From positions 1 through 43,512 of the IMG/VR virus record IMGVR_UViG_2563366800_000009: 43,512 bases of DNA; one strand, written 5' to 3'. The notes beneath the pieces are model-generated. The model made no database searches. It was not told the origin of the DNA and worked only from the letters and a program-made list of their open reading frames with translations. Shown here in pieces: positions 2,743 through 43,292 of the stretch. A program made the translations under genes and the position numbers. The DNA comes from a virus (Duplodnaviria; Heunggongvirae; Uroviricota; Caudoviricetes). Numbering within the stretch: the stretch's first letter is position 1; each line of letters starts with the position of its first letter.

Positions 2743-4695
2743 CTAACGAAGCCATTGGCTTGGTTTTTGTTTCAGTATATGTATCGCCCCTTGACCGGAA
2801 GCTGCCTGTTGTGCAGTTGCTAGCGTCACTATGTAGGTATTCCCTACTGTTCTTGGTTGAGTAAGGTTAAACTGCAGCGGTGAAGTATCACAGGATATGT
2901 ATTCTATTCCTGAATCAGAAGTCACCTGAAATTCAGTATATAATACACTACCGGAAGAGATAGAAATGTGAATTGCTATCTCACCTCCAGTGTATACAAA
3001 AGGTATACTTGGCATATTTGAAAAATCCTTAAAGTTAAGCATTGACGATGAACTAATAACCTCTTTGCCTACGTCATTAGTAAGTTGAACCGGTTTAGTG
3101 TAATCATAAGCCAGTAGAACGTAATAGTTTACAAAATTTACAAAACTTGAAGACGCCTTTGAAGAGCTATGCCATGTTTTTTTATTGTCCACACGGTATA
3201 TGGATTGGATGTTTAGAAACTCACTTGCCGTTGCTCTTTGCAGTATACCAGTACCTATGCCAAAATGGATATTACCAACGTCAAACACGTGGTCCTCGAC
3301 ATTTCCTGTAGTTGATAATATCGCGATATCAGGCTCTGCACTATCTTCAAGCGCTTCACTGCATTTTTCAAAGTACATAGAACCAACAGACCAACTAACA
3401 GCGTTAACAGTAGCTAAACCAGCGCCTGCTGTGGTTTCAGCTATTAATGTTCCTATTCTTGATGCCAATCCTTGCCCGAGAGTGACACCGGCACCTATGA
3501 GCTGTGGGGTTAAAGATGATGAATACGGATCATACCCATAGGACAAAGATTTTGATGTGTTATACGCAGCGACGACACCAAATTCAACACCATTAACGTT
3601 TACGTCTCCGGTTTCACCGGAGAAACCATGTGCCAAAGAGACACCTCTTGCACAATCAATTCCCATATATTGATTTACTTTATGATACCAACTCCCAAGA
3701 AGTACAATTCCAACTTCTGTGGCATTATAAGCATATATAATGTCTGTGACAGATTCTGCAACTACACCAAAACCATAAAAACCGTAAGGCGCAACATTGT
3801 TAGCATCAATATTTAATGTACCAATGTGCCTAATTCCACGAACTTGTTGTTCAGGCAATGAAAGATCCGGGGATGTTCCTACTGGTTTTTTGCTGGCGCG
3901 AACTACAGCCTTTCCACCCCATGAATAGCCACTCATCGCTTTAATAGTTGCGCCGTTTGTTTCCATCACTAAATACGATGGGATAACAACTTCATCGCTA
4001 ACAAAATATGTACAACCAGGCGTTAACTCAATAAACCCTGTTTTAATTGCCATGTTAATTGCATTTAAACAATCACTTTCAGAATAAGGTTTGGCGCCGA
4101 AGTTCTCTGGGGTGTTTAAGTTAAACCCATTAAGTAGTCCAACGCATATCCAATTATCATCTGGATGGCTTCCAGCATCAACATCATAACCGCCTTCTAC
4201 TATATCTTTCCTGGCATAAAAATACATGTTTCCATCAGGATCGTTATCATAAAGAACAGCATAGCGCTCATCATCAATATGTCCACCTGATGAAAAACTA
4301 ATATCAGACTTAAAATAGAAGTTAAGTCTGAAATGATTTTTTGCCCATACAGAAAATTGATCAGGATCATACTTCAGCACATTCGGAAAATAGAACTGCT
4401 GCGCCCCATACGCATCATAAACAGCCATAGAATGGCCCTGTACAGTAACGAATTTGGCAATCTGTCCGTTATATACCGGATATCCAGCAGCGTTAATGAT
4501 GATTGGCTGCGAAACAGGAACGTGAGAGCCGTCTTCGTTCTCCACATAAACCTGAATCTGGTTTTCAGGATTTACCGGGTCAGTGTCAATTTTACCGATA
4601 TAAATTTTGCCATTGGCAACCGCTTTAAAAGAACGCGCCATAGTGAAGAGTTGCGAAGGCATTGATACGATCACATTGGCTGTAATGTCTGTCAT
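2743..4695 (-). CDS. Tailspike protein; P22-type N-terminal head-binding domain with divergent receptor-binding/enzymatic domain
   Basis: N-terminus [34 protein letters not shown]...[13 protein letters not shown] matches the conserved P22/Sf6/HK620 tailspike head-binding domain; the rest is distinct. Confidence 0.85.
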
Positions 4696-4751
4696 TTAAT
4701 TTGCTCCAGATACAAGGAATCACCGAAGCATGGCTACGATGAATTTTGGGC

Positions 4752-4777
4752 ATAAAAAAACCCAGCCGAAGCTGGGT
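4752..4777 (-). terminator. Rho-independent terminator between ant and tailspike gene
   Basis: Hairpin CCCAGC-TTCG-GCTGGG followed by a T-run on the minus strand. Confidence 0.55.
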
Positions 4778-4795
4778 TGTCGCGTTGGTTATCTG

Positions 4796-5674
4796 TCAGT
4801 AGTTATGTACTGAAGGAGGTAATTCTTTATTCTTAAGTCTCATCCATGCGGAAAGATTCGCTGGTCCGTCTGGCTCATTGATATCAACATCTCGTGTGTG
4901 ATTGATTAAAACGTCTCTCGCCATTCCGATAACATACGAGAATTCATGACCGTAGTCGTAGCATCTGCCGGAATAGTTCGATTGAACTTGTTTTAATGCC
5001 GGATACAGTTCGCGGAATAATGCCTGTGAACGGTTAGCATAATCCCATAGCCATACAAGGCTGTTTGCTTCTTTTGCAGAAAGCTCGTTTGCTTTCTTCT
5101 CTTGTTTGCCGATAAACTCGCCTTCAAGCACTACCCTGTGGATGTACTCTACGGCCAGCGGGATTTGTTCAATTGAAAGTTCATCAATGCTGTCAATACC
5201 AAAACGCTGATGAACCATATTGTATGCATCGTCATAGCGAAGTCCTTTCTTTCCTACCAGCATGTTTACTGCATCGCGTAGCGGCGTTCTTTCCTCAACA
5301 GTGGTTTTCTTGCCTTTCACATACTCGCCATGTTTGCGAATTGAAGGTAGAACTTCTGCTGTTACCCACTTGCGGAATTTGTGCGGGACCGAACCTTTAT
5401 TGACAGCATCGCGGCAGCGCAGAACCAATGTATACATACCTGATTCGCTAACAATGCTTAGATTCTGCTCACCACCAAGGGTGTAACTTAAAGTTACTCC
5501 CTTTTCATCGTCATCAAGTGCAGTAAGCGCCTTGCGTGAGTTAGTCAGGGTTAAAGCATCACAAACATCTTTTGCTACAAACCACGGCTCACCGCATTTG
5601 TTGATGACGCGGATTTCACTGTCGCCGAATTTGAAGATGGTGAAATCGTTTTGTGCCTTTGCTATACTTTTCAT
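4796..5674 (-). CDS. ant: Antirepressor Ant (BRO-N plus antirepressor C-terminal domain)
   Basis: Position downstream of arc as in P22 immI; ATG at 5674 has an AGGAAA RBS; ORF-track start at 5740 is a TTG. Confidence 0.7.
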
Positions 5675-5736
5675 GTCAATATTTCCTAATCCGATTTGTT
5701 GATACCGAAGCCCTGACTGTTCCCGCAGTTGGGGCT

Positions 5737-24210: not shown

Positions 24211-24286
24211 TGGTGCTGGTTAACGGACTTGAACCGCTACCCATTCGCTTACAAGGCGACTGCTCTACCATTGGAGCTAAACCAGC
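24211..24286 (-). tRNA. Phage-encoded tRNA-Thr-like gene (anticodon UGU)
   Basis: Cloverleaf read by eye: acceptor GCTGGTT/AACCAGC, D-arm GCTC-CAATGGTA-GAGC, anticodon loop CTTGTAA, T-loop TTCAAGT, discriminator A, CCA; one anticodon-stem mismatch. Confidence 0.6.
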
Positions 24287-24291
24287 ATGTT

Positions 24292-24366
24292 TGGCGGGAC
24301 AGCGTGGACTCGAACCACGATAAGAAGGTTAACAGCCTTCCGTAATGACCTTTATACGACTGACCC
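24292..24366 (-). tRNA. Phage-encoded tRNA-Asn-like gene (anticodon GUU), possibly degenerate
   Basis: Anticodon arm GAAGG-CTGTTAA-CCTTC, T-arm CGTGG-TTCGAGT-CCACG, 3' GCCA; acceptor stem has a T-T mismatch and the D-stem is only 3 bp. Confidence 0.4.
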
Positions 24367-26769: not shown

Positions 26770-27015
26770 TCATTCGCATTCACTAATTGCGTCGTTATAA
26801 CCAAATGTGACCCCATCCTCGAAATCGGTAGAAAATGCCTCACGCTCTCTTTTTCCAGGACACTCAATCTCAATAGCTGCTCGCGATGCCTGCCACGCTT
26901 GCCAATACATCTCAACCATATTGGCGTATATTTTATTTTTATGATCACATCCGGTGTAATTTTCAAACCATTCTTCAAACTGCTTTCTTGATTCGTCCAT
27001 ATTCCTCTCCATCAC
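26770..27015 (-). CDS. Hypothetical 81-aa protein
   Basis: ORF in nin region. Confidence 0.45.
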   Translation of the reverse strand: MMERNMDESRKQFEEWFENYTGCDHKNKIYANMVEMYWQAWQASRAAIEIECPGKREREAFSTDFEDGVTFGYNDAISECE

Positions 27016-27338
27016 TAGACTTTGTGCTGTTCTGAAATAACACGAGAAAATGCCTCACGCCGCCATTCTTTGCTGCGCTCAATGTCATCCTGCATATCTT
27101 TAAATTCGACATTTTTCCTTGATTTCTGCAAGGTGTAACCGCATCGGGCCATGTACCAAAGAAAGGTGTCAATAACATAGATATGCCCATCTCTGGCATT
27201 ACCGTTTTCGTTAGCATTCCCAATTGTGTCGTGCATAGCATTAAACACATCTTTCTGGTCGTGAAAGTCGCGTAGAAAGCCAGGAAGATATTCGCCGCTT
27301 TGCAACCATTCAATTAATCCATTTTCGTTACTCATCAT
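27015..27338 (-). CDS. Hypothetical 107-aa protein
   Basis: ORF in nin region. Confidence 0.45.
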   Translation of the reverse strand: MMSNENGLIEWLQSGEYLPGFLRDFHDQKDVFNAMHDTIGNANENGNARDGHIYVIDTFLWYMARCGYTLQKSRKNVEFKDMQDDIERSKEWRREAFSRVISEQHKV

Positions 27339-27362: not shown

Positions 27363-27551
27363 TTAGTTAAGTAGCGTAAATGTGTAATCGTCATCGTGTA
27401 GTACTTCGTCGTGCACATAAATAAATCCGCCTTCATGTGTAATGTACAGATCGCCTAAATCATCTCGCTCAGGCTCAATATGACGCTGGCAGAATGGGCA
27501 ATACTGCGCATGTTTAGATGGTTCACTCACGCTATCACCTCTCACTTCCAA
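27363..27551 (-). CDS. Hypothetical 62-aa protein with C-x-x-C motif
   Basis: ORF in nin region. Confidence 0.35.
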   Translation of the reverse strand: MEVRGDSVSEPSKHAQYCPFCQRHIEPERDDLGDLYITHEGGFIYVHDEVLHDDDYTFTLLN

Positions 27552-27633
27552 TCCAATAAAAAAGGGCTACTGTGTAAATAGTCCCTGTTATTAGCTCAGT
27601 GATGTAGATGGTCATTGCTTCATCTCCCTTTCC

Positions 27634-27641
27634 ATTTCATC
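27634..27641. repeat. Left copy of 8-bp target-site duplication ATTTCATC
   Basis: Identical to 30083-30090. Confidence 0.8.
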
Positions 27642-27678
27642 GTAAGCGTGCAGCAAGAACCGTATTGACGGGGATGTG

Positions 27679-29217
27679 TTATTCAGTCGGCAGTGCTACG
27701 CGCCAGGGGAGCAGTTCGCCGACCCGGTTTATCGGCCAGTCGGCTATGACGTCAAGGACATAGCGGAGGTAGCTTTCTGGCTCCACTCCGTTCAGTTTGC
27801 ACGTCCCGATCAGGCTGTACAGCAGCGCTCCCCGCTCTCCTCCATGATCCGAACCGAAGAACAGGTAGTTTTTGCGGCCCAGACTGACCATCCGCAACGC
27901 ATTTTCAGCGATGTTATTGTCCGCCTCAGCCCAGCCATCATCTGCATAGTACGTCAGCGCCGGCCACTGGTTCAGGGCGTATGCGAACGCTTTCGCCAGT
28001 TCTGAGTGTCGCGACAGGGTTTTCATCTTTTCACGCAGCCAGCTTTCCAGGGATTTCAGCAGCGGTTTCGTTTTCAACTGACGTTCGGCAAGGCGCTGCT
28101 CCGCCGTCATTCCCCTTATCTCTGCCTCGATGGCGTACAGTTCGCCGATCCGTTTCAGCGCTTCCTCCGTCAGGGCTGACGGGGTGCGAACGTGCACATC
28201 GTGGATTTTACGGCGGGCGTGAGCCCAACAGGCGGCTTCCGTTATCCGGCCATCCCGGTACAGCTCGTTGAACCCGGCGTATGCATCCGCCTGCAGTACA
28301 CCACTGAACCCCGCAAGATGGGTCTGCGGATGGATGCCTTTTCTGTCCGGGCTGTAAGCGAACCACACCGCCGGCGCCAGCGTTGACCCGGCGTTACGGT
28401 CGTCACGAACGTAGGTCCATAACCGCCCGGTCTTCGTTTTCTTATTGCCTGGCAACAGCACCGGGACAGGCGTGTCATCAGCATGGAGCTTACCGTCAGT
28501 CAGCACATAGTCCTGAAGCGCTTCTTCCAGCGGTGACAGTAGCCGGCAGCATGCATCCACCCAGCCCGACAGCAGTGAACGACTCAGCTCCACGCCCTGG
28601 CGGCCGTACATTTCAGACTGGCGGTACAGCGGGGTGTGCTCTGCATACTTTGAGATCAGCACGCGGGCCAGCAGCCCCGGTCCTGCGATACCCCGCTCGA
28701 TGGGCCGTGAAGGCGCGGGGGCCTGCACGATGGCATCGCACTGAGTACAGGCATGCTTTTCACGTACAGTCCGGATAACCCGGAAGACGCTGCGCATCAA
28801 CTCCAGCTGTTCGGCGGCATCCTCACCCAGATAGCTCAGTGAGCCTCCACATTCCGGGCAGCATGACGCTGCCGGCAGCAGCCGTTTTTCATCGCGGGGG
28901 AGTGATTCGGGGAACGGTTTGCGGGTGCGGGTTTGACGCAGCGGGCGCTGCACGGCCGGGGCGTCAACCCGACCGGTAAGGGTATCACTTTCTTTCTGAA
29001 GTGCCTTCAGGTCAGCTTCCATCTGTGCGATACGACGGGAGACTTTTTCGGAGCGGCTGCCGAAGTTCATCCGGCGCAGCTTATCCAGCTGTGCCTGCAG
29101 ATGGTCTATTTCGCGTTCACGCTCGTTCAGCTTTTCCAGCAGGGCACGGTTCAGCGCCTCCTGTTCGGCAAGGAGACGTTTCAGTGCATTGATATCGTCA
29201 GGAAGTGAGCTGCTCAT
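27679..29217 (-). CDS. tnpC: IS66-family transposase TnpC (orf3)
   Basis: 512 aa with coiled-coil N-terminus, CPECG zinc motif and DDE-type core typical of IS66 transposases. Confidence 0.9.
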
Positions 29218-29265
29218 ACCGGGTATATTACCAGGCTCATTCAGCGTCGACCAGGATAAAGAGGC

Positions 29266-29613
29266 TTACAACATAGTCAGGGACGTAAGCAGTCTTTTAG
29301 GCTGCCGCCAGTCGATACCTTCAAGGAGCATCGCCAGCTGTGCCGGTGTGAGGAACACTTTGCCATCCCGGGCTGACGGCCAGGCGAAGCGGCCGCGCTC
29401 CAGCCGTTTGGTCAGCAGACACAGTCCATCGCCGGTAGACCAGAGGAGCTTTACCTGACTGCCATTACGCCCACGGAAGATAAAAACGTGACCTGACATC
29501 GGATCGTCTTTCAGCGTCGTCTGCACCTTTGCCGCCAGGCCGTTGAAGCCATTTCTCATATCGGTGATACCGGCAACCAGCCAAATTTTTGTCCCGGAAG
29601 GTAACGGGATCAT
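29266..29613 (-). CDS. tnpB: IS66-family accessory protein TnpB (orf2)
   Basis: 115 aa, MIPLPSGTKIWLVAGITDMRNGFNGLAAKV typical of IS66 orf2. Confidence 0.85.
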   Translation of the reverse strand: MIPLPSGTKIWLVAGITDMRNGFNGLAAKVQTTLKDDPMSGHVFIFRGRNGSQVKLLWSTGDGLCLLTKRLERGRFAWPSARDGKVFLTPAQLAMLLEGIDWRQPKRLLTSLTML

Positions 29614-30011
29614 CGCTTCAGTTCCTGTATCAGCAGAGTCAGGAGCTTTTCGCTGACATTGCCATTGAAGCGGAGCGTCCCGTGCCGGAACGTTACCTCA
29701 CAGCTGATACTGAGGGTTTTCGGGTCCTCTGCGAGCGATTCTGGCTGTTCGGCAGCTGCATCGAGAGTCACAGGAAGTAGCTGGGGGCTCTCTGAAGAAG
29801 GTAATAGCAGCTTTCCCTCGCGCCATTGTTGTCGCCATTTGAACAACAGATTGGCGTTAATGCCATTTTCAAGAGCAAGTTTTGAGATGGATATCCCGGG
29901 TTCACAGGAGGCAGCAACGAGCTGCTGTTTAAATTCGGGAGGATAATTAGGGCTGCCTTTTCGCCTGCCGGGAGTCACATTTTTCTGCATATCTGACACT
30001 TTGGTTCCCAC
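29610..30011 (-). CDS. tnpA: IS66-family accessory protein TnpA (orf1)
   Basis: 133 aa, overlapping tnpB as in IS66 elements. Confidence 0.8.
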   Translation of the reverse strand: MGTKVSDMQKNVTPGRRKGSPNYPPEFKQQLVAASCEPGISISKLALENGINANLLFKWRQQWREGKLLLPSSESPQLLPVTLDAAAEQPESLAEDPKTLSISCEVTFRHGTLRFNGNVSEKLLTLLIQELKR

Positions 30012-30078
30012 TACTTATTTGGTGGACACCACTTTGTCTAATTCGTCAGATTCTGACCAGACGGTTCAGGCTGTACGC

Positions 30079-30330
30079 TTACATTTCATCAATGTCAACG
30101 TCATCAGGAAGATGGGAGCAATACGCCGCTATACCATGATGATTTATCTCATACCCTTTGAACGTTACCATCTGGCGCGTAATCTCAACTTCGTTCAGGA
30201 ATCCGTCATCGCATAACTGCCTGGCTATTTTCGATTTGGTCTGGATTATTGGTAGTGCCTGTTCTTTCAAAGCGCATGATATTTGTGCATCCCATGCCTT
30301 TTCGAGAATGGCTAATTGTTTTTTATTCAT
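30079..30330 (-). pseudogene. Small phage gene downstream of helicase whose last 6 codons are replaced by the IS66 end (C-terminally truncated)
   Basis: ORF runs into the IS right end and stops at TAA inside GTAAGCG; joining the flanks restores ...DIDEMEREMKQ-stop. Confidence 0.55.
30083..30090. repeat. Right copy of 8-bp target-site duplication ATTTCATC
   Basis: Identical to 27634-27641. Confidence 0.8.
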
Positions 30331-31766
30331 CAGAATCCTCCTTTCTTCTTGGACTGAGGTTCCTCGCGTTCACGGCGGCGCATTTCAGCAGACTGTTGGT
30401 CTGTGTCATAAATAGCGCCATTTGCCTGAATGCAATACACCGTGCCGGTATTGCCATGACGATTGAGACGAAGGATTAGTTCAGTTTCACCAGGTGGAAC
30501 ACTGTCATCAAAAGCGCCTTCACGATGGATCCCAACCCAATAATCGCAATCCTGTTCAATCTGCCCTGTATCTCGTGAGTCACTTGGTAATGGGCGTTTA
30601 TTGGTTCTGCTTTCCAGTGCGCGGTTAAGCTGCGTCAGAAGCACAACAACGCAATCAAGCTCTTTGGCAAGGTTCTTCAGTCCTTTGGTGATCATGCCGT
30701 AAGCAAGGTCGTTGCGATCGGCCTTCTCAGCGGTCATTAGTGTCAGGTAATCGACCAGAATCATGCCAACACATCCTTTTTCTCGCTTGATTCGACGGCT
30801 TTCGCTGACGATTTGAGCCAGAGATAATCCCGGCGTGTCGTCGATGTAAAGCAGGTCGATTTCACTCAAGCGATTGGCTGTTTCGATCGCCCTGTTGAAG
30901 TCACCATCGTAATCACCCTGATAGCCGTCATCGGCGTCATTTGTCGCCGGAAGGTAAAAAATATTCGGGTTAACACCTGACTTCTGCCCTACCAGTTTTT
31001 CCAGTATCTGGTCACCTGGCATTTCAAGGCTGAACATCAGAGCGGGCTTTTTCTCATGCACTGCGCAGTTGATTGCCATCTGGCTGTATAGCGTCGTTTT
31101 CCCCATCTTAGGGCGAGCGCCAATGACAAACAGAGAGCCTTTCACCAGACCTTTCGGTGACAGCATCCTGTCCAGCGATGGGATCCCTGTGCTCATTCCC
31201 CGTTGTTCGCCTGATGGATCAAATCGCTTCTCAAGGTCGCTAACCCAGTCTTCCATGACCTCACCAAATGAGCGAAGGCCGCGACGCGATCCGGTTTTTG
31301 CATGGTCTGTCAGTTGCGTGAAAATCGCCTGAATAGCTTCGTACTTCTGCGTTGCAGTCATTCCATTGCGGGAATAGAGCAATTCCGTCGCTTCAGTCAT
31401 GCGGTTGATGGCGTAGCGTTCCATTGCGGTTTCGCGAACCTGCATTGCATAAGCAACGATGTTTGCTGCGCTTGGCGTGTTCTTTGCGATCTCAGCGATA
31501 TAAGCAAAACCGCCAACAGACACCGTTAACGATTTACGCTCCAGTTCATCGAAAAGCGTCAGGCCATCTACTGGCTTTTGCTCACGGTGCATTCTGGTTA
31601 TTTCTTCGAAAAGGATTTTGTGTGGTCGGCTGTAAAATGAATCAGGCTTCAGCATCGCCAGAACTTTCTGGACGCGCTCACTGCTGTCATCATCCAGAAG
31701 CAATCCACCAATCACCGCCTGCTCTGCCTCGATGCTATGGGGCGGCGCATAAAAATTATCGGTCAT
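30330..31766 (-). CDS. Replicative DNA helicase, DnaB-like (P22 gene 12-like)
   Basis: Walker A GARPKMGKT and DnaB-family sequence; start at ATG 31766 with GAGGG RBS. Confidence 0.9.
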   Translation of the reverse strand: MTDNFYAPPHSIEAEQAVIGGLLLDDDSSERVQKVLAMLKPDSFYSRPHKILFEEITRMHREQKPVDGLTLFDELERKSLTVSVGGFAYIAEIAKNTPSAANIVAYAMQVRETAMERYAINRMTEATELLYSRNGMTATQKYEAIQAIFTQLTDHAKTGSRRGLRSFGEVMEDWVSDLEKRFDPSGEQRGMSTGIPSLDRMLSPKGLVKGSLFVIGARPKMGKTTLYSQMAINCAVHEKKPALMFSLEMPGDQILEKLVGQKSGVNPNIFYLPATNDADDGYQGDYDGDFNRAIETANRLSEIDLLYIDDTPGLSLAQIVSESRRIKREKGCVGMILVDYLTLMTAEKADRNDLAYGMITKGLKNLAKELDCVVVLLTQLNRALESRTNKRPLPSDSRDTGQIEQDCDYWVGIHREGAFDDSVPPGETELILRLNRHGNTGTVYCIQANGAIYDTDQQSAEMRRREREEPQSKKKGGF

Positions 31767-32583
31767 CGTGTTCACCCTCACGAACTTTCAGGTAGGTATT
31801 ATCGTTAAGCAGGAAATCAAATCCCTTTTTGTGCCAGACAGTTCCGCGTTGATGGTTTGGGCGCTCTTCGAACATCCATCGGCAATTTTCGCCTACGTAG
31901 CTCAAATAATTTCTCCAGTCCTGCATCGTGAACCCATGCCCGTCAAGCTGGCGGGTTATCACTCCGGCTTTGCGCCAGAACGTTCGGATCTGGTTTTTAC
32001 GCTTGTCATTCAGTGCGCGGATTCTTGGCGCTTCAGGAAGGATTTCGTGGTAAGCATCGACAACATCCTGACAGCTGACGGAAGGTTTTTTCTTGTCAGA
32101 CTTTTTGTCTGCTGTGGCACTCTCTAATACGTCAGTATTAGAGATATTATTTATATTATTGTTTATGGACAACTGTTGGACAACCGTTGGACAATCTCCG
32201 CTGAGAGCCGCACCATTACTGGTGTTTGCGTTGGACAACTGTTGGACAACCGTTGGACAATTTTTTGCCTGAAAATCGTCATATTTAACGATTGTAAACA
32301 GGCTAAATTTCTTCCCCATCGAGCAAATATTAAGCATACCTTTCGACTCAAAAGTCCGTAATAAGCTCCGAACTTTGTTGTCGGGGATGAATGTTTCTCT
32401 GACCAGCGACGGGCGTCCAGTTATCATCTGACCGCGCTCAACAGTTATCGGACCGATATCCGTATTGACGACAGTAGATTCGTGATTAGCCTTGAGGATT
32501 AAGTGAAGCCAAAGATGTACTGCCTGAGAGTCCTTATAGAGCCTGCTGTCCATAAACTGGCGGTGTATAGAGACATACCCCAT
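31756..32583 (-). CDS. Replication initiator, lambda O/P22 gene 18-like, containing the origin iterons
   Basis: Iteron array lies inside the ORF; AGGAGG RBS before ATG at 32583; directly upstream of the helicase gene. Confidence 0.7.
   Translation of the reverse strand: MGYVSIHRQFMDSRLYKDSQAVHLWLHLILKANHESTVVNTDIGPITVERGQMITGRPSLVRETFIPDNKVRSLLRTFESKGMLNICSMGKKFSLFTIVKYDDFQAKNCPTVVQQLSNANTSNGAALSGDCPTVVQQLSINNNINNISNTDVLESATADKKSDKKKPSVSCQDVVDAYHEILPEAPRIRALNDKRKNQIRTFWRKAGVITRQLDGHGFTMQDWRNYLSYVGENCRWMFEERPNHQRGTVWHKKGFDFLLNDNTYLKVREGEHDDR
32165..32263. repeat. Phage replication origin iterons: two clusters of three 11-bp repeats TTGGACAAC(T/C)G, followed by an AT-rich segment
   Basis: Six tandem or near-tandem copies seen at 32165-32197 and 32231-32263. 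Confidence 0.75.
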
Positions 32584-43276: not shown

Positions 43277-43292
43277 TTGCAGGTTCGATTCC
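43277..43292 (+). other. 16-bp exact copy of the argW T-arm segment (TTGCAGGTTCGATTCC; compare 1054-1069); att-core-like element upstream of torI
   Basis: Exact 16-bp identity seen in sequence. Confidence 0.5.

Follow-up and report, generated by a model that had tools for sequence, protein, structure and literature searches.

A complete IS66-family insertion sequence of 2,441 bp (27642-30082, minus strand) interrupts a small gene of a P22-like prophage in the window, the whole stretch of 43,512 nucleotides that was analysed. The explanation we favour, with a probability of roughly 90%, is that an ISEc22-type IS66 element transposed into the tail of this prophage gene, with an effect that would be neutral to mildly deleterious. 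The insertion is an ordinary event of an already known kind, routine and not surprising, and no evidence contradicting the insertion itself was met.

Judged by gene content and similarity, the host is a P22-like prophage of the Sf6/HK620/IME10 type, integrated at tRNA-Arg(CCT) within a single E. coli lineage (GCA_000408625.1). It has the features of Lederbergvirus-type phages, namely a head, portal, terminase, tailspike and ejection module, an early region of lambdoid type and an integrase located at a tRNA. With IME10 the structural half shares 94% identity, and with HK620 the early-left end shares 97%. Apart from the insertion the prophage is complete, with int, tailspike, portal, coat, both terminase subunits, Q and the nin genes, and among the early genes O-like, helicase, cII, cI, an N-like antiterminator gene and xis are present. 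The attL core CTGCAGGGGACACCAT (1069-1084) lies at the 3' end of the tRNA gene, and the matching attR core is found 74 nt past the end of the window, which gives a prophage length of 42,517 bp. Both cores are the same as the annotated attP core of HK620. Another 16-mer, TTGCAGGTTCGATTCC, occurs at 1054 and 43277 and would have placed attR within the window; it was rejected as att core because HK620 carries it upstream of the xis-like gene and has CTGCAGGGGACACCAT as its attP core.

The ends of the element follow from its inverted repeats and the target-site duplication. The terminal repeats, GTAAGCGTGCAGCAAGAACCGT at the tnpC end (27642-27663) and ACGGTTCAGGCTGTACGCTTAC at the tnpA end (30061-30082), are 22 nt long and complementary at 19 of the 22 bases (86%); both start with GTAAGCG, at the tnpA end when the minus strand is read. 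Inverted repeats of IS66 elements are reportedly imperfect, about 20-30 bp long and start with 5'-GTAAGCG. The element is flanked by two copies of the 8-mer ATTTCATC, at 27634-27641 and 30083-30090. An exact 8-bp flanking duplication had been claimed in the first-pass annotation, and on re-inspection the two 8-mers are identical to each other; that 8-mers at positions preset by the inverted repeat ends agree exactly has a chance probability of about 1/65,536. The target duplication of IS66 elements is 8 bp (PMC6778807). Together with the inverted repeats, the A-B-C gene order and the domain set of TnpC, the duplication displays what is characteristic of the IS66 family.

All three genes of the element lie on the minus strand. 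The accessory gene tnpA (29610-30011) encodes 133 aa from a GTG start and matches Pfam HTH_Tnp_1 (PF01527, E=1.4e-12); an alternative RefSeq call is a 126-aa form that starts 21 nt further downstream. Its stop shares 4 nt (29610-29613) with the start of the accessory gene tnpB (29266-29613, 115 aa; TnpB_IS66, PF05717, E=1.6e-38), and both matches score above their Pfam cut-offs. After a gap of 48 nt follows tnpC (27679-29217), which encodes a DDE transposase of 512 aa and ends 37 nt before the end of the IS. TnpC matches DDE_Tnp_IS66 (PF03050) with E=1.2e-106 and a score of 356.7 bits against a cut-off of 23.1, and also scores above the Pfam cut-offs for LZ_Tnp_IS66, zf-IS66 and DDE_Tnp_IS66_C (PF13007, PF13005, PF13817). 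On matching copies RefSeq lists TnpA as WP_014639829.1 or WP_016241213.1, TnpB as WP_000612626.1 and TnpC as WP_000099170.1. These Pfam domains and the near-identical RefSeq-labelled copies agree with the initial description of a 2441-bp IS66-type element. That description counted three transposase ORFs; there are indeed three ORFs, of IS66 type, but the transposase is TnpC alone, TnpA and TnpB being accessory proteins according to the RefSeq annotation of the matching copies. The element is structurally intact; its three ORFs are whole, its sequence is one base away from widespread copies, and it may be able to transpose.

Over its full length the element is identical at 2440 of 2441 nt to six other E. 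coli chromosomal copies of the ISEc22 family, which have the same gene order and inverted repeats and likewise show 8-bp duplications. The single private base of the window copy, at 28961, changes TnpC by D86A relative to these six. Five of them are flanked by perfect 8-bp duplications and one by 9 bp, and three are located within or between prophage genes. Their sites include a tail fibre gene, a tail-fibre assembly gene and, in strain 40EC, a position between genes of nin-region type (DUF1364/DUF1133). The proteins of matching copies carry the RefSeq label IS66-like/"ISEc22 family", and it is by this naming that the element would be of the ISEc22 type; to count as a named ISfinder entry or isoform, an element should agree with the ISfinder reference sequence in at least about 95% of nucleotides or 98% of amino acids. 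In one published table ISEc22 is 2,454 bp long (PMC5001619), as compared with 2,441 bp for the window element. Moreover, some copies with the same label, such as those in CFT073, align only to IS positions 1-2073, at 97%, and diverge beyond. In view of this partial match the window element may be an isoform, or a hybrid with a different tnpA end. ISEc8, an IS66-family element of E. coli O157:H7 and others, shares the three-gene layout and is co-linear throughout, with matched spans of about 2,442 bp, but is only 88.6% identical in nucleotide sequence and is thus a separate IS.

The interrupted gene (30079-30330, minus strand; WP_016246165.1/EOW22007.1) belongs to phrog_2239 and retains 83 of its 89 codons. 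It directly follows the gene for a DnaB-type replicative helicase (30330-31781, minus strand; Pfam DnaB and DnaB_C) in the same operon, and the two are translationally coupled, the start of the 83-aa ORF and the helicase stop having one base in common (TGATG). The last codons of the ORF read GAT GAA AT|G TAA, in which the IS terminus provides the G of the ATG codon and the whole TAA. Ends of IS66-family elements read GTAAG..., and therefore the inserted end yields an in-frame TAA. This traces the premature stop to the right end of the IS, as originally suggested. The displaced last 22 nt of the gene (GG AAA GGG AGA TGA AGC AAT GA), which encode EREMKQ*, are found on the other side of the element at 27612-27633 (minus strand). 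When the flanks are joined so that a single 8-mer remains, the six additional codons that the first-pass annotation had noted are restored, and the ORF has 89 aa and ends in ...DIDEMEREMKQ*. The phrog_2239 profile has 89 positions, of which the rebuilt protein covers 1-89 (E=3.2e-63) and the 83-aa product positions 1-83. Further downstream, an unannotated hydrophobic ORF of 26 codons (27535-27615, minus strand), the peptide of which is conserved in L001 and L002, starts with an ATG that shares bases with the former stop of the 89-codon gene (ATGA); it is uncoupled by the IS and retains its own GGAG.

The uninterrupted form of the locus exists in nature. E. coli 317 has an empty site with one copy of ATTTCATC, and its annotated gene product (WP_001036028.1) is 89 aa long and ends in EREMKQ*. 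A single ATTTCATC marks the empty site in L002, and the empty site with an intact gene is present in phage mEpX2, of which the gene is gp49 (270 nt); many complete genomes carry the empty site as well. The length of 89 aa in both E. coli 317 and mEpX2 refutes the possibility, raised at the outset, that the gene naturally ends at the same position, as far as close relatives are concerned. The occupied site was found in none of 5,426 complete E. coli genomes, and an exact 37-mer across the left junction had no match in GTDB species-representative genomes. The source assembly GCA_000408625.1 and three read-set assemblies with neighbouring run numbers, SRR639988, SRR641920 and SRR640125, were the only places where it occurred. 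The event had been called recent, which the perfect duplication, the one difference in 2,441 positions and the complete genomes free of the insertion favour weakly, although it is undatable.

The distribution of the junctions bears on whether the insertion could be an assembly artefact, in which scaffolding put a multi-copy IS in the wrong place and the 8-bp repeat arose by chance. The source is a scaffold of draft quality, only the NCBI scaffold documents the left junction, and short-read contigs break inside the IS, as a repeat would cause them to do (L005 stops 28 nt into the element, L006 and L007 at 29059). However, in three independent read-set assemblies the host gene runs straight into the IS end at the right junction with 100% identity, and the flanks rebuild the known empty site exactly with one 8-mer, which is not expected from a mis-join. 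An artefact is thus hardly conceivable.

The gene that received the element seems to tolerate such loss. It is an accessory cassette with a naturally variable C-terminal tail: it is precisely missing in OkiPb01675, and Sf6, IME10 and HK542 are also without it. A natural nonsense allele of 85 aa occurs on at least 22 contigs, and in other genomes an IS3-family truncation leaves 77 aa. The 85-aa allele (P0028) was considered as a second IS66 insertion close to the first, which was ruled out since it results from a GAG-to-TAG point mutation. All invariant or nearly invariant alignment columns of the 89-aa protein fall before residue 76. For an accessory gene with so variable a tail, the truncated protein probably does no harm, or the phage can probably do without it, and of all consequences of the insertion the truncation probably matters least. 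Searches with the 89-aa protein gave no match in Pfam and nothing credible among PDB profiles (best E=0.13). Its AlphaFold model is confident (pLDDT 90), and its Foldseek matches are all weak and of winged-helix/PadR/MarR-like type (E about 0.01-0.03 and TM about 0.5 at best), a hint of a small DNA-binding fold short of an assignment. A counterpoint to harmlessness is the helix predicted at residues 80-88, which is mostly lost by the truncation and through which a PadR-like winged-helix protein could dimerise. Against a role of this helix, the fold matches are weak (E of 0.01 or higher) and more distant homologues do not have the tail.

All functional consequences of the insertion we infer from sequence. 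The IS itself hit the 8-mer ATTTCATC, six codons ahead of the stop of the 89-codon gene, and staggered cleavage followed by repair duplicated this 8-mer. The IS genes are co-oriented with the early-right operon of the phage, and a simple scan, blind to Rho-dependent polarity, found no terminator-like site on the minus strand within the IS. Despite the insertion, early-right (PR) transcripts probably extend into the nin genes and Q, through an operon that would be 2.4 kb longer upstream of Q. The main cost would be 2,449 bp of extra DNA, composed of the 2,441-bp IS and the duplicated 8-mer, by which the prophage would have grown from 40,068 to 42,517 bp. The headful of P22 is 43,400 bp (PMC8402733, PMC10345575). 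With a P22-like headful of about 43.4 kb, a stand-in that may not be the value for this capsid, the terminal redundancy would drop from about 3.3 kb to about 0.9 kb. For the headful size of Sf6 no figure was found in the literature searched. On balance the insertion would be neutral to mildly deleterious, as is typical of prophage decay.

A more severe outcome can be considered, in which the insertion cripples the prophage and leaves it locked in the chromosome as an early step of domestication, either because polarity blocks Q and the late genes or because the oversize genome lacks the terminal redundancy required to circularise. The IS makes a headful-packaged genome 6% longer, and a redundancy of about 0.9 kb, if the P22 headful is assumed, is near the quoted spread of headful cutting. 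Oversize P22 genomes with transposon insertions are said to exceed the headful and to be defective in single infection. There, too, an insertion in a headful-packaging genome of P22 type consumes terminal redundancy, but the window prophage, with 42.5 kb, does not reach the P22 headful of 43.4 kb. The closest precedent is Sf6, a P22-like, headful-packaging phage integrating at argW, the replication genes of which are 98% identical to those of the window and which likewise carries an intact bacterial IS, IS911, in a non-essential nin-region gene. Sf6 repeatedly shed this IS when selected for fast growth, and its loss speeds up the life cycle (PMC5630979). This would be in line with a burden, yet Sf6 is viable with the IS in place, and its deletion left late-gene transcription unchanged (PMC5630979). 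The two cases differ in several respects. IS911 belongs to the IS3 family, its target gene is another one, the Sf6 deletions that remove it measure 1.2-4.0 kb as compared with 2.44 kb for the window element, and it is transcribed against the late genes of Sf6, whereas the window IS runs with the operon. Furthermore, Sf6 is proven viable and the window prophage is known from sequence alone. Since the IS is co-oriented, the operon strand shows no terminator-like site and the phage has an N-like antiterminator, we consider crippling of the prophage unlikely, and a mild effect on an otherwise complete prophage is preferred.

An opposite effect, in which the insertion is adaptive, is far less likely again. 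A promoter of the IS or read-out from tnpC would drive the downstream nin genes in the repressed lysogen, or the 83-aa protein would have a changed activity that benefits the host. The IS genes do face the nin genes, with only the 37 nt after the tnpC stop in between, and the same small region of another E. coli (L030) received an independent IS66-family element that is 85.7% identical and has the same ends. On the other hand, a promoter scan gave nothing outward-facing in the IS, IS elements hit prophage genes often and at scattered positions, as some of the six other copies illustrate, and the confinement of the occupied site to the source assembly and three neighbouring-run read sets shows no sign of spread. 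A broader proposal, to which we attach comparably little belief, is that the region just downstream of the helicase is a preferred landing zone of IS66 elements, where rewiring of nin and Q or loss of redundancy domesticates P22-like prophages. Its sole support comes from the window and L030, different strains in which IS66-family elements inserted independently less than about 400 bp apart in homologous sequence, and from the copy of strain 40EC. If true, it would mean a reproducible IS66 route to the domestication of P22-like prophages instead of random insertion.

For annotation, the "hypothetical protein" WP_016246165.1 can be recognised as the IS-truncated allele of an 89-aa phage gene, and beyond this the significance is small. 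The prophage nevertheless presents a clean natural case of an IS running with the early-right operon of a prophage that packages by the headful, which can be compared with Sf6 and its IS911. The lysogen could serve to ask what amount of terminal redundancy is required by a P22-like phage.

The element lies between two copies of the 8-mer ATTTCATC (27634–27641 and 30083–30090). The first-pass annotation had given this duplication and its coordinates; both are exact, the copies being identical by script. With both positions already set by the inverted repeats, identical 8-mers would arise by chance with a probability of about 1/65,536. The intervening 2,441 bp (27642–30082) end in 22-nt inverted repeats, GTAAGCGTGCAGCAAGAACCGT and ACGGTTCAGGCTGTACGCTTAC, complementary at 19 of 22 bases, and have a G+C content of 54–61% against about 47–48% in the flanks. 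Three intact ORFs are found, all on the minus strand: tnpA (29610–30011, 133 aa; Pfam HTH_Tnp_1, E=1.4e-12), tnpB (29266–29613, 115 aa; TnpB_IS66, E=1.6e-38) and tnpC (27679–29217, 512 aa; DDE_Tnp_IS66, E=1.2e-106, with LZ_Tnp_IS66, zf-IS66 and DDE_Tnp_IS66_C). The tnpA stop and tnpB start overlap by 4 bases, and tnpC follows tnpB after 48 nt. All three had been called transposase ORFs, but only TnpC is the transposase.

The earlier assignment to the IS66 family is secure, in view of these Pfam matches and of the RefSeq labels of near-identical copies, whose proteins are named "IS66-like element ISEc22 family transposase", TnpA and TnpB. Its precise ISfinder name is not secure. ISEc8 is co-linear with the element at only 88.6% identity, some copies labelled as ISEc22 family (e.g. 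in CFT073) match only IS positions 1–2073 at 97%, and the length tabulated for ISEc22 is 2,454 bp (PMC5001619). Possible readings are a 2,441-bp isoform and a hybrid whose tnpA end differs. Matches to the element, counted at any level of identity, occur in 4,060 of 5,426 complete E. coli genomes. Six full-length copies that were fetched are identical to each other and differ from the window copy by one base, IS position 1320 (window 28961; G here, T in the six). As a result TnpC residue 86, in the linker past the leucine zipper, is Ala instead of Asp. The donor copy may already have carried this difference. Five of the six have perfect 8-bp duplications (GGTCATTT, GGAAAATG, TACTTACT, AATTCAAC, GAAGCAGG) and the sixth a 9-bp repeat; their targets lean towards A+T and lack a clear consensus.

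Prophage genes are frequent targets of ISEc22-type elements. In strain 40EC a copy identical at 2440 of 2441 positions (NZ_CP070920.1 locus L017, 1501–3941) lies between DUF1364 and DUF1133 genes, of nin-region type, in another lambdoid prophage, and of two more, one lies in a tail-fibre assembly gene (L018) of a prophage and the other in a tail-fibre gene (L022). In another E. coli prophage (GCA_900449085.1, UGCE01000001.1; locus L030), a different IS66-family element (3293–5732; 85.7% identical, 8-bp duplication GTTTAATG) disrupts the counterpart of the 107-aa gene at window 27015–27338. In the window this gene is the second one downstream of the insertion site, and IS66-family elements have hit this short region twice, independently.

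The uninterrupted site is common. The joined flanks are matched in 744 of the 5,426 complete genomes, and each of matches H17–H40 spans the junction as one aligned piece at about 98–99% identity. E. coli 317 has a single ATTTCATC and an annotated gene of 270 nt (89 aa, WP_001036028.1) that differs from our reconstruction by one substitution; gp49 of phage mEpX2 is the same 270-nt gene, behind a 98.3%-identical replication module. The element with both flanks was found in none of the 5,426 genomes, and the species-representative genome collection had no exact match to a 37-mer over the left junction. A search for exact matches to the 83-aa product (WP_016246165.1/EOW22007.1) did locate the occupied site, both on scaffold KE137202.1 (GCA_000408625.1), which agrees with the window at 100% over 12.2 kb, and on contigs from SRR639988, SRR641920 and SRR640125 that are 100% identical across the right junction. 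Since three read-set assemblies contain this junction, a scaffolding artefact is ruled out and the insertion is real, restricted to a single lineage or a handful of isolates. It had been described as recent. The perfect duplication, the intact ORFs, the single base difference and the lack of the insertion in complete genomes, where the empty site is common, fit a young event but do not date it.

The interrupted gene (30079–30330, minus strand, 83 codons) has a start codon that shares one base with the stop of the upstream DnaB-type helicase ORF (TGATG) and ends GAT GAA AT/G TAA GCG, so that the G of the final ATG and the entire TAA are contributed by the IS terminus. Removal in silico of the element and one 8-mer copy gives an 89-codon ORF ending DIDEMEREMKQ, which bears out the proposed truncation and its six restored codons. 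The reconstructed protein matches phrog_2239, a family without known function, over positions 1–89 of 89 (E=3.2e-63), and the 83-aa product over positions 1–83; a Pfam search gave no match. The gene is a precise cassette. It is missing from E. coli OkiPb01675, whose flanks are otherwise 97.5–99.3% identical to the window, and from Sf6, IME10 and HK542, as judged from matches that begin at the helicase stop. In the OkiPb01675 locus (NZ_AP042478.1, L001) the absence is near-exact, 3571–3574 corresponding to window 27612–27641 plus 30091–30330, and the break points fall at the short start/stop overlaps, with a 4-nt shared junction.

The truncated product is probably harmless, or the phage can dispense with it. 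In the family alignment the invariant and nearly invariant columns all precede residue 76; the tail past LPDD differs between members in both length and sequence, and some homologues naturally stop at 83–85 residues. An 85-aa allele, caused by GAG-to-TAG at codon 86, is found in at least 22 contigs with otherwise intact prophages (e.g. GCA_032011425.1, L023, 3501–3758), and at least 24 contigs carry an IS3-family element that cuts the gene off past about codon 68 and leaves a 77-aa product (e.g. GCA_037957285.1, L008, 3501–4973). This reading is tempered by the AlphaFold model of the 89-aa protein (pLDDT 90), in which a helix at residues 80–88 overlaps the lost tail. The C-terminal helix of small PadR/MarR-type winged-helix proteins can mediate dimerization, and the predicted fold resembles these weakly (best E 0.01–0.03, TM about 0.5).

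Transcription probably still crosses the element. The IS genes are co-oriented with the early-right operon, a terminator scan of the minus strand within the IS found no site, and the phage encodes an N-like antiterminator, which makes read-through to Q plausible. Transcribing the additional 2.4 kb would postpone read-through to Q by tens of seconds at usual elongation rates. The insertion also uncouples the 89-codon gene from an unannotated 26-codon hydrophobic ORF (MTIYITELITGTIYTVALFYWIGSER; 27535–27615, minus strand), whose ATG overlaps the stop of the intact gene (ATGA) and which retains a GGAG eight nt upstream. Its peptide is kept in OkiPb01675 and in E. coli 317 (MTIYITELVTGLLVIAGLFIWG...), although in the latter the DNA diverges past about 57 nt. 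It may be a small membrane peptide missed by annotation pipelines.

The window is a P22-like prophage, with tRNA-Arg(CCT) (1009–1083), integrase, tailspike, ejection proteins, coat, scaffold, portal and terminase followed by lysis genes, two tRNAs (Thr-TGT and Asn-GTT, 24211–24366, minus strand), Q, nin genes, the IS, the helicase gene, an O-like gene, cII, cro, cI, an N-like gene, recombination and ea genes and a xis-like gene. Its structural half is 94% identical to IME10 and its early-left end 97% identical to HK620. The att core CTGCAGGGGACACCAT matches the HK620 annotation; attL is at 1069–1084 and attR 74 nt past the window end on the same scaffold. An exact 16-mer, TTGCAGGTTCGATTCC, occurs in the tRNA-Arg T-arm (1054–1069) and directly upstream of the xis-like gene (43277–43292). 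It was rejected as attR given the HK620 core and the true attR outside the window. HK620 has it at 1677–1692 of its record, annotated as integration-promoter/cII-binding region, and the repeated 16-mer may either descend from an older att site or match regulatory sequence by coincidence.

The prophage measures 42,517 bp. Subtracting the IS and duplication (2,449 bp) leaves 40,068 bp, inside the 38–40.4 kb range of its relatives. P22 packages 43,400 bp (PMC8402733, PMC10345575). If the capsid behaves like that of P22, the insertion would leave about 0.9 kb (2%) of terminal redundancy in place of about 3.3 kb (8%). Sf6, with IS911 in one of its nin genes, is the nearest precedent. Deletions removing that IS were selected repeatedly and gave faster lysis with unchanged late-gene transcription, and longer terminal redundancy is one reason proposed for their benefit (PMC5630979). 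The suggested effect of the insertion on nin transcription is unproven, and the Sf6 precedent gives it no support. The insertion is a routine IS event in a prophage, already in public annotation; truncation of the small gene is probably its least important effect, and packaging is the likeliest real cost.
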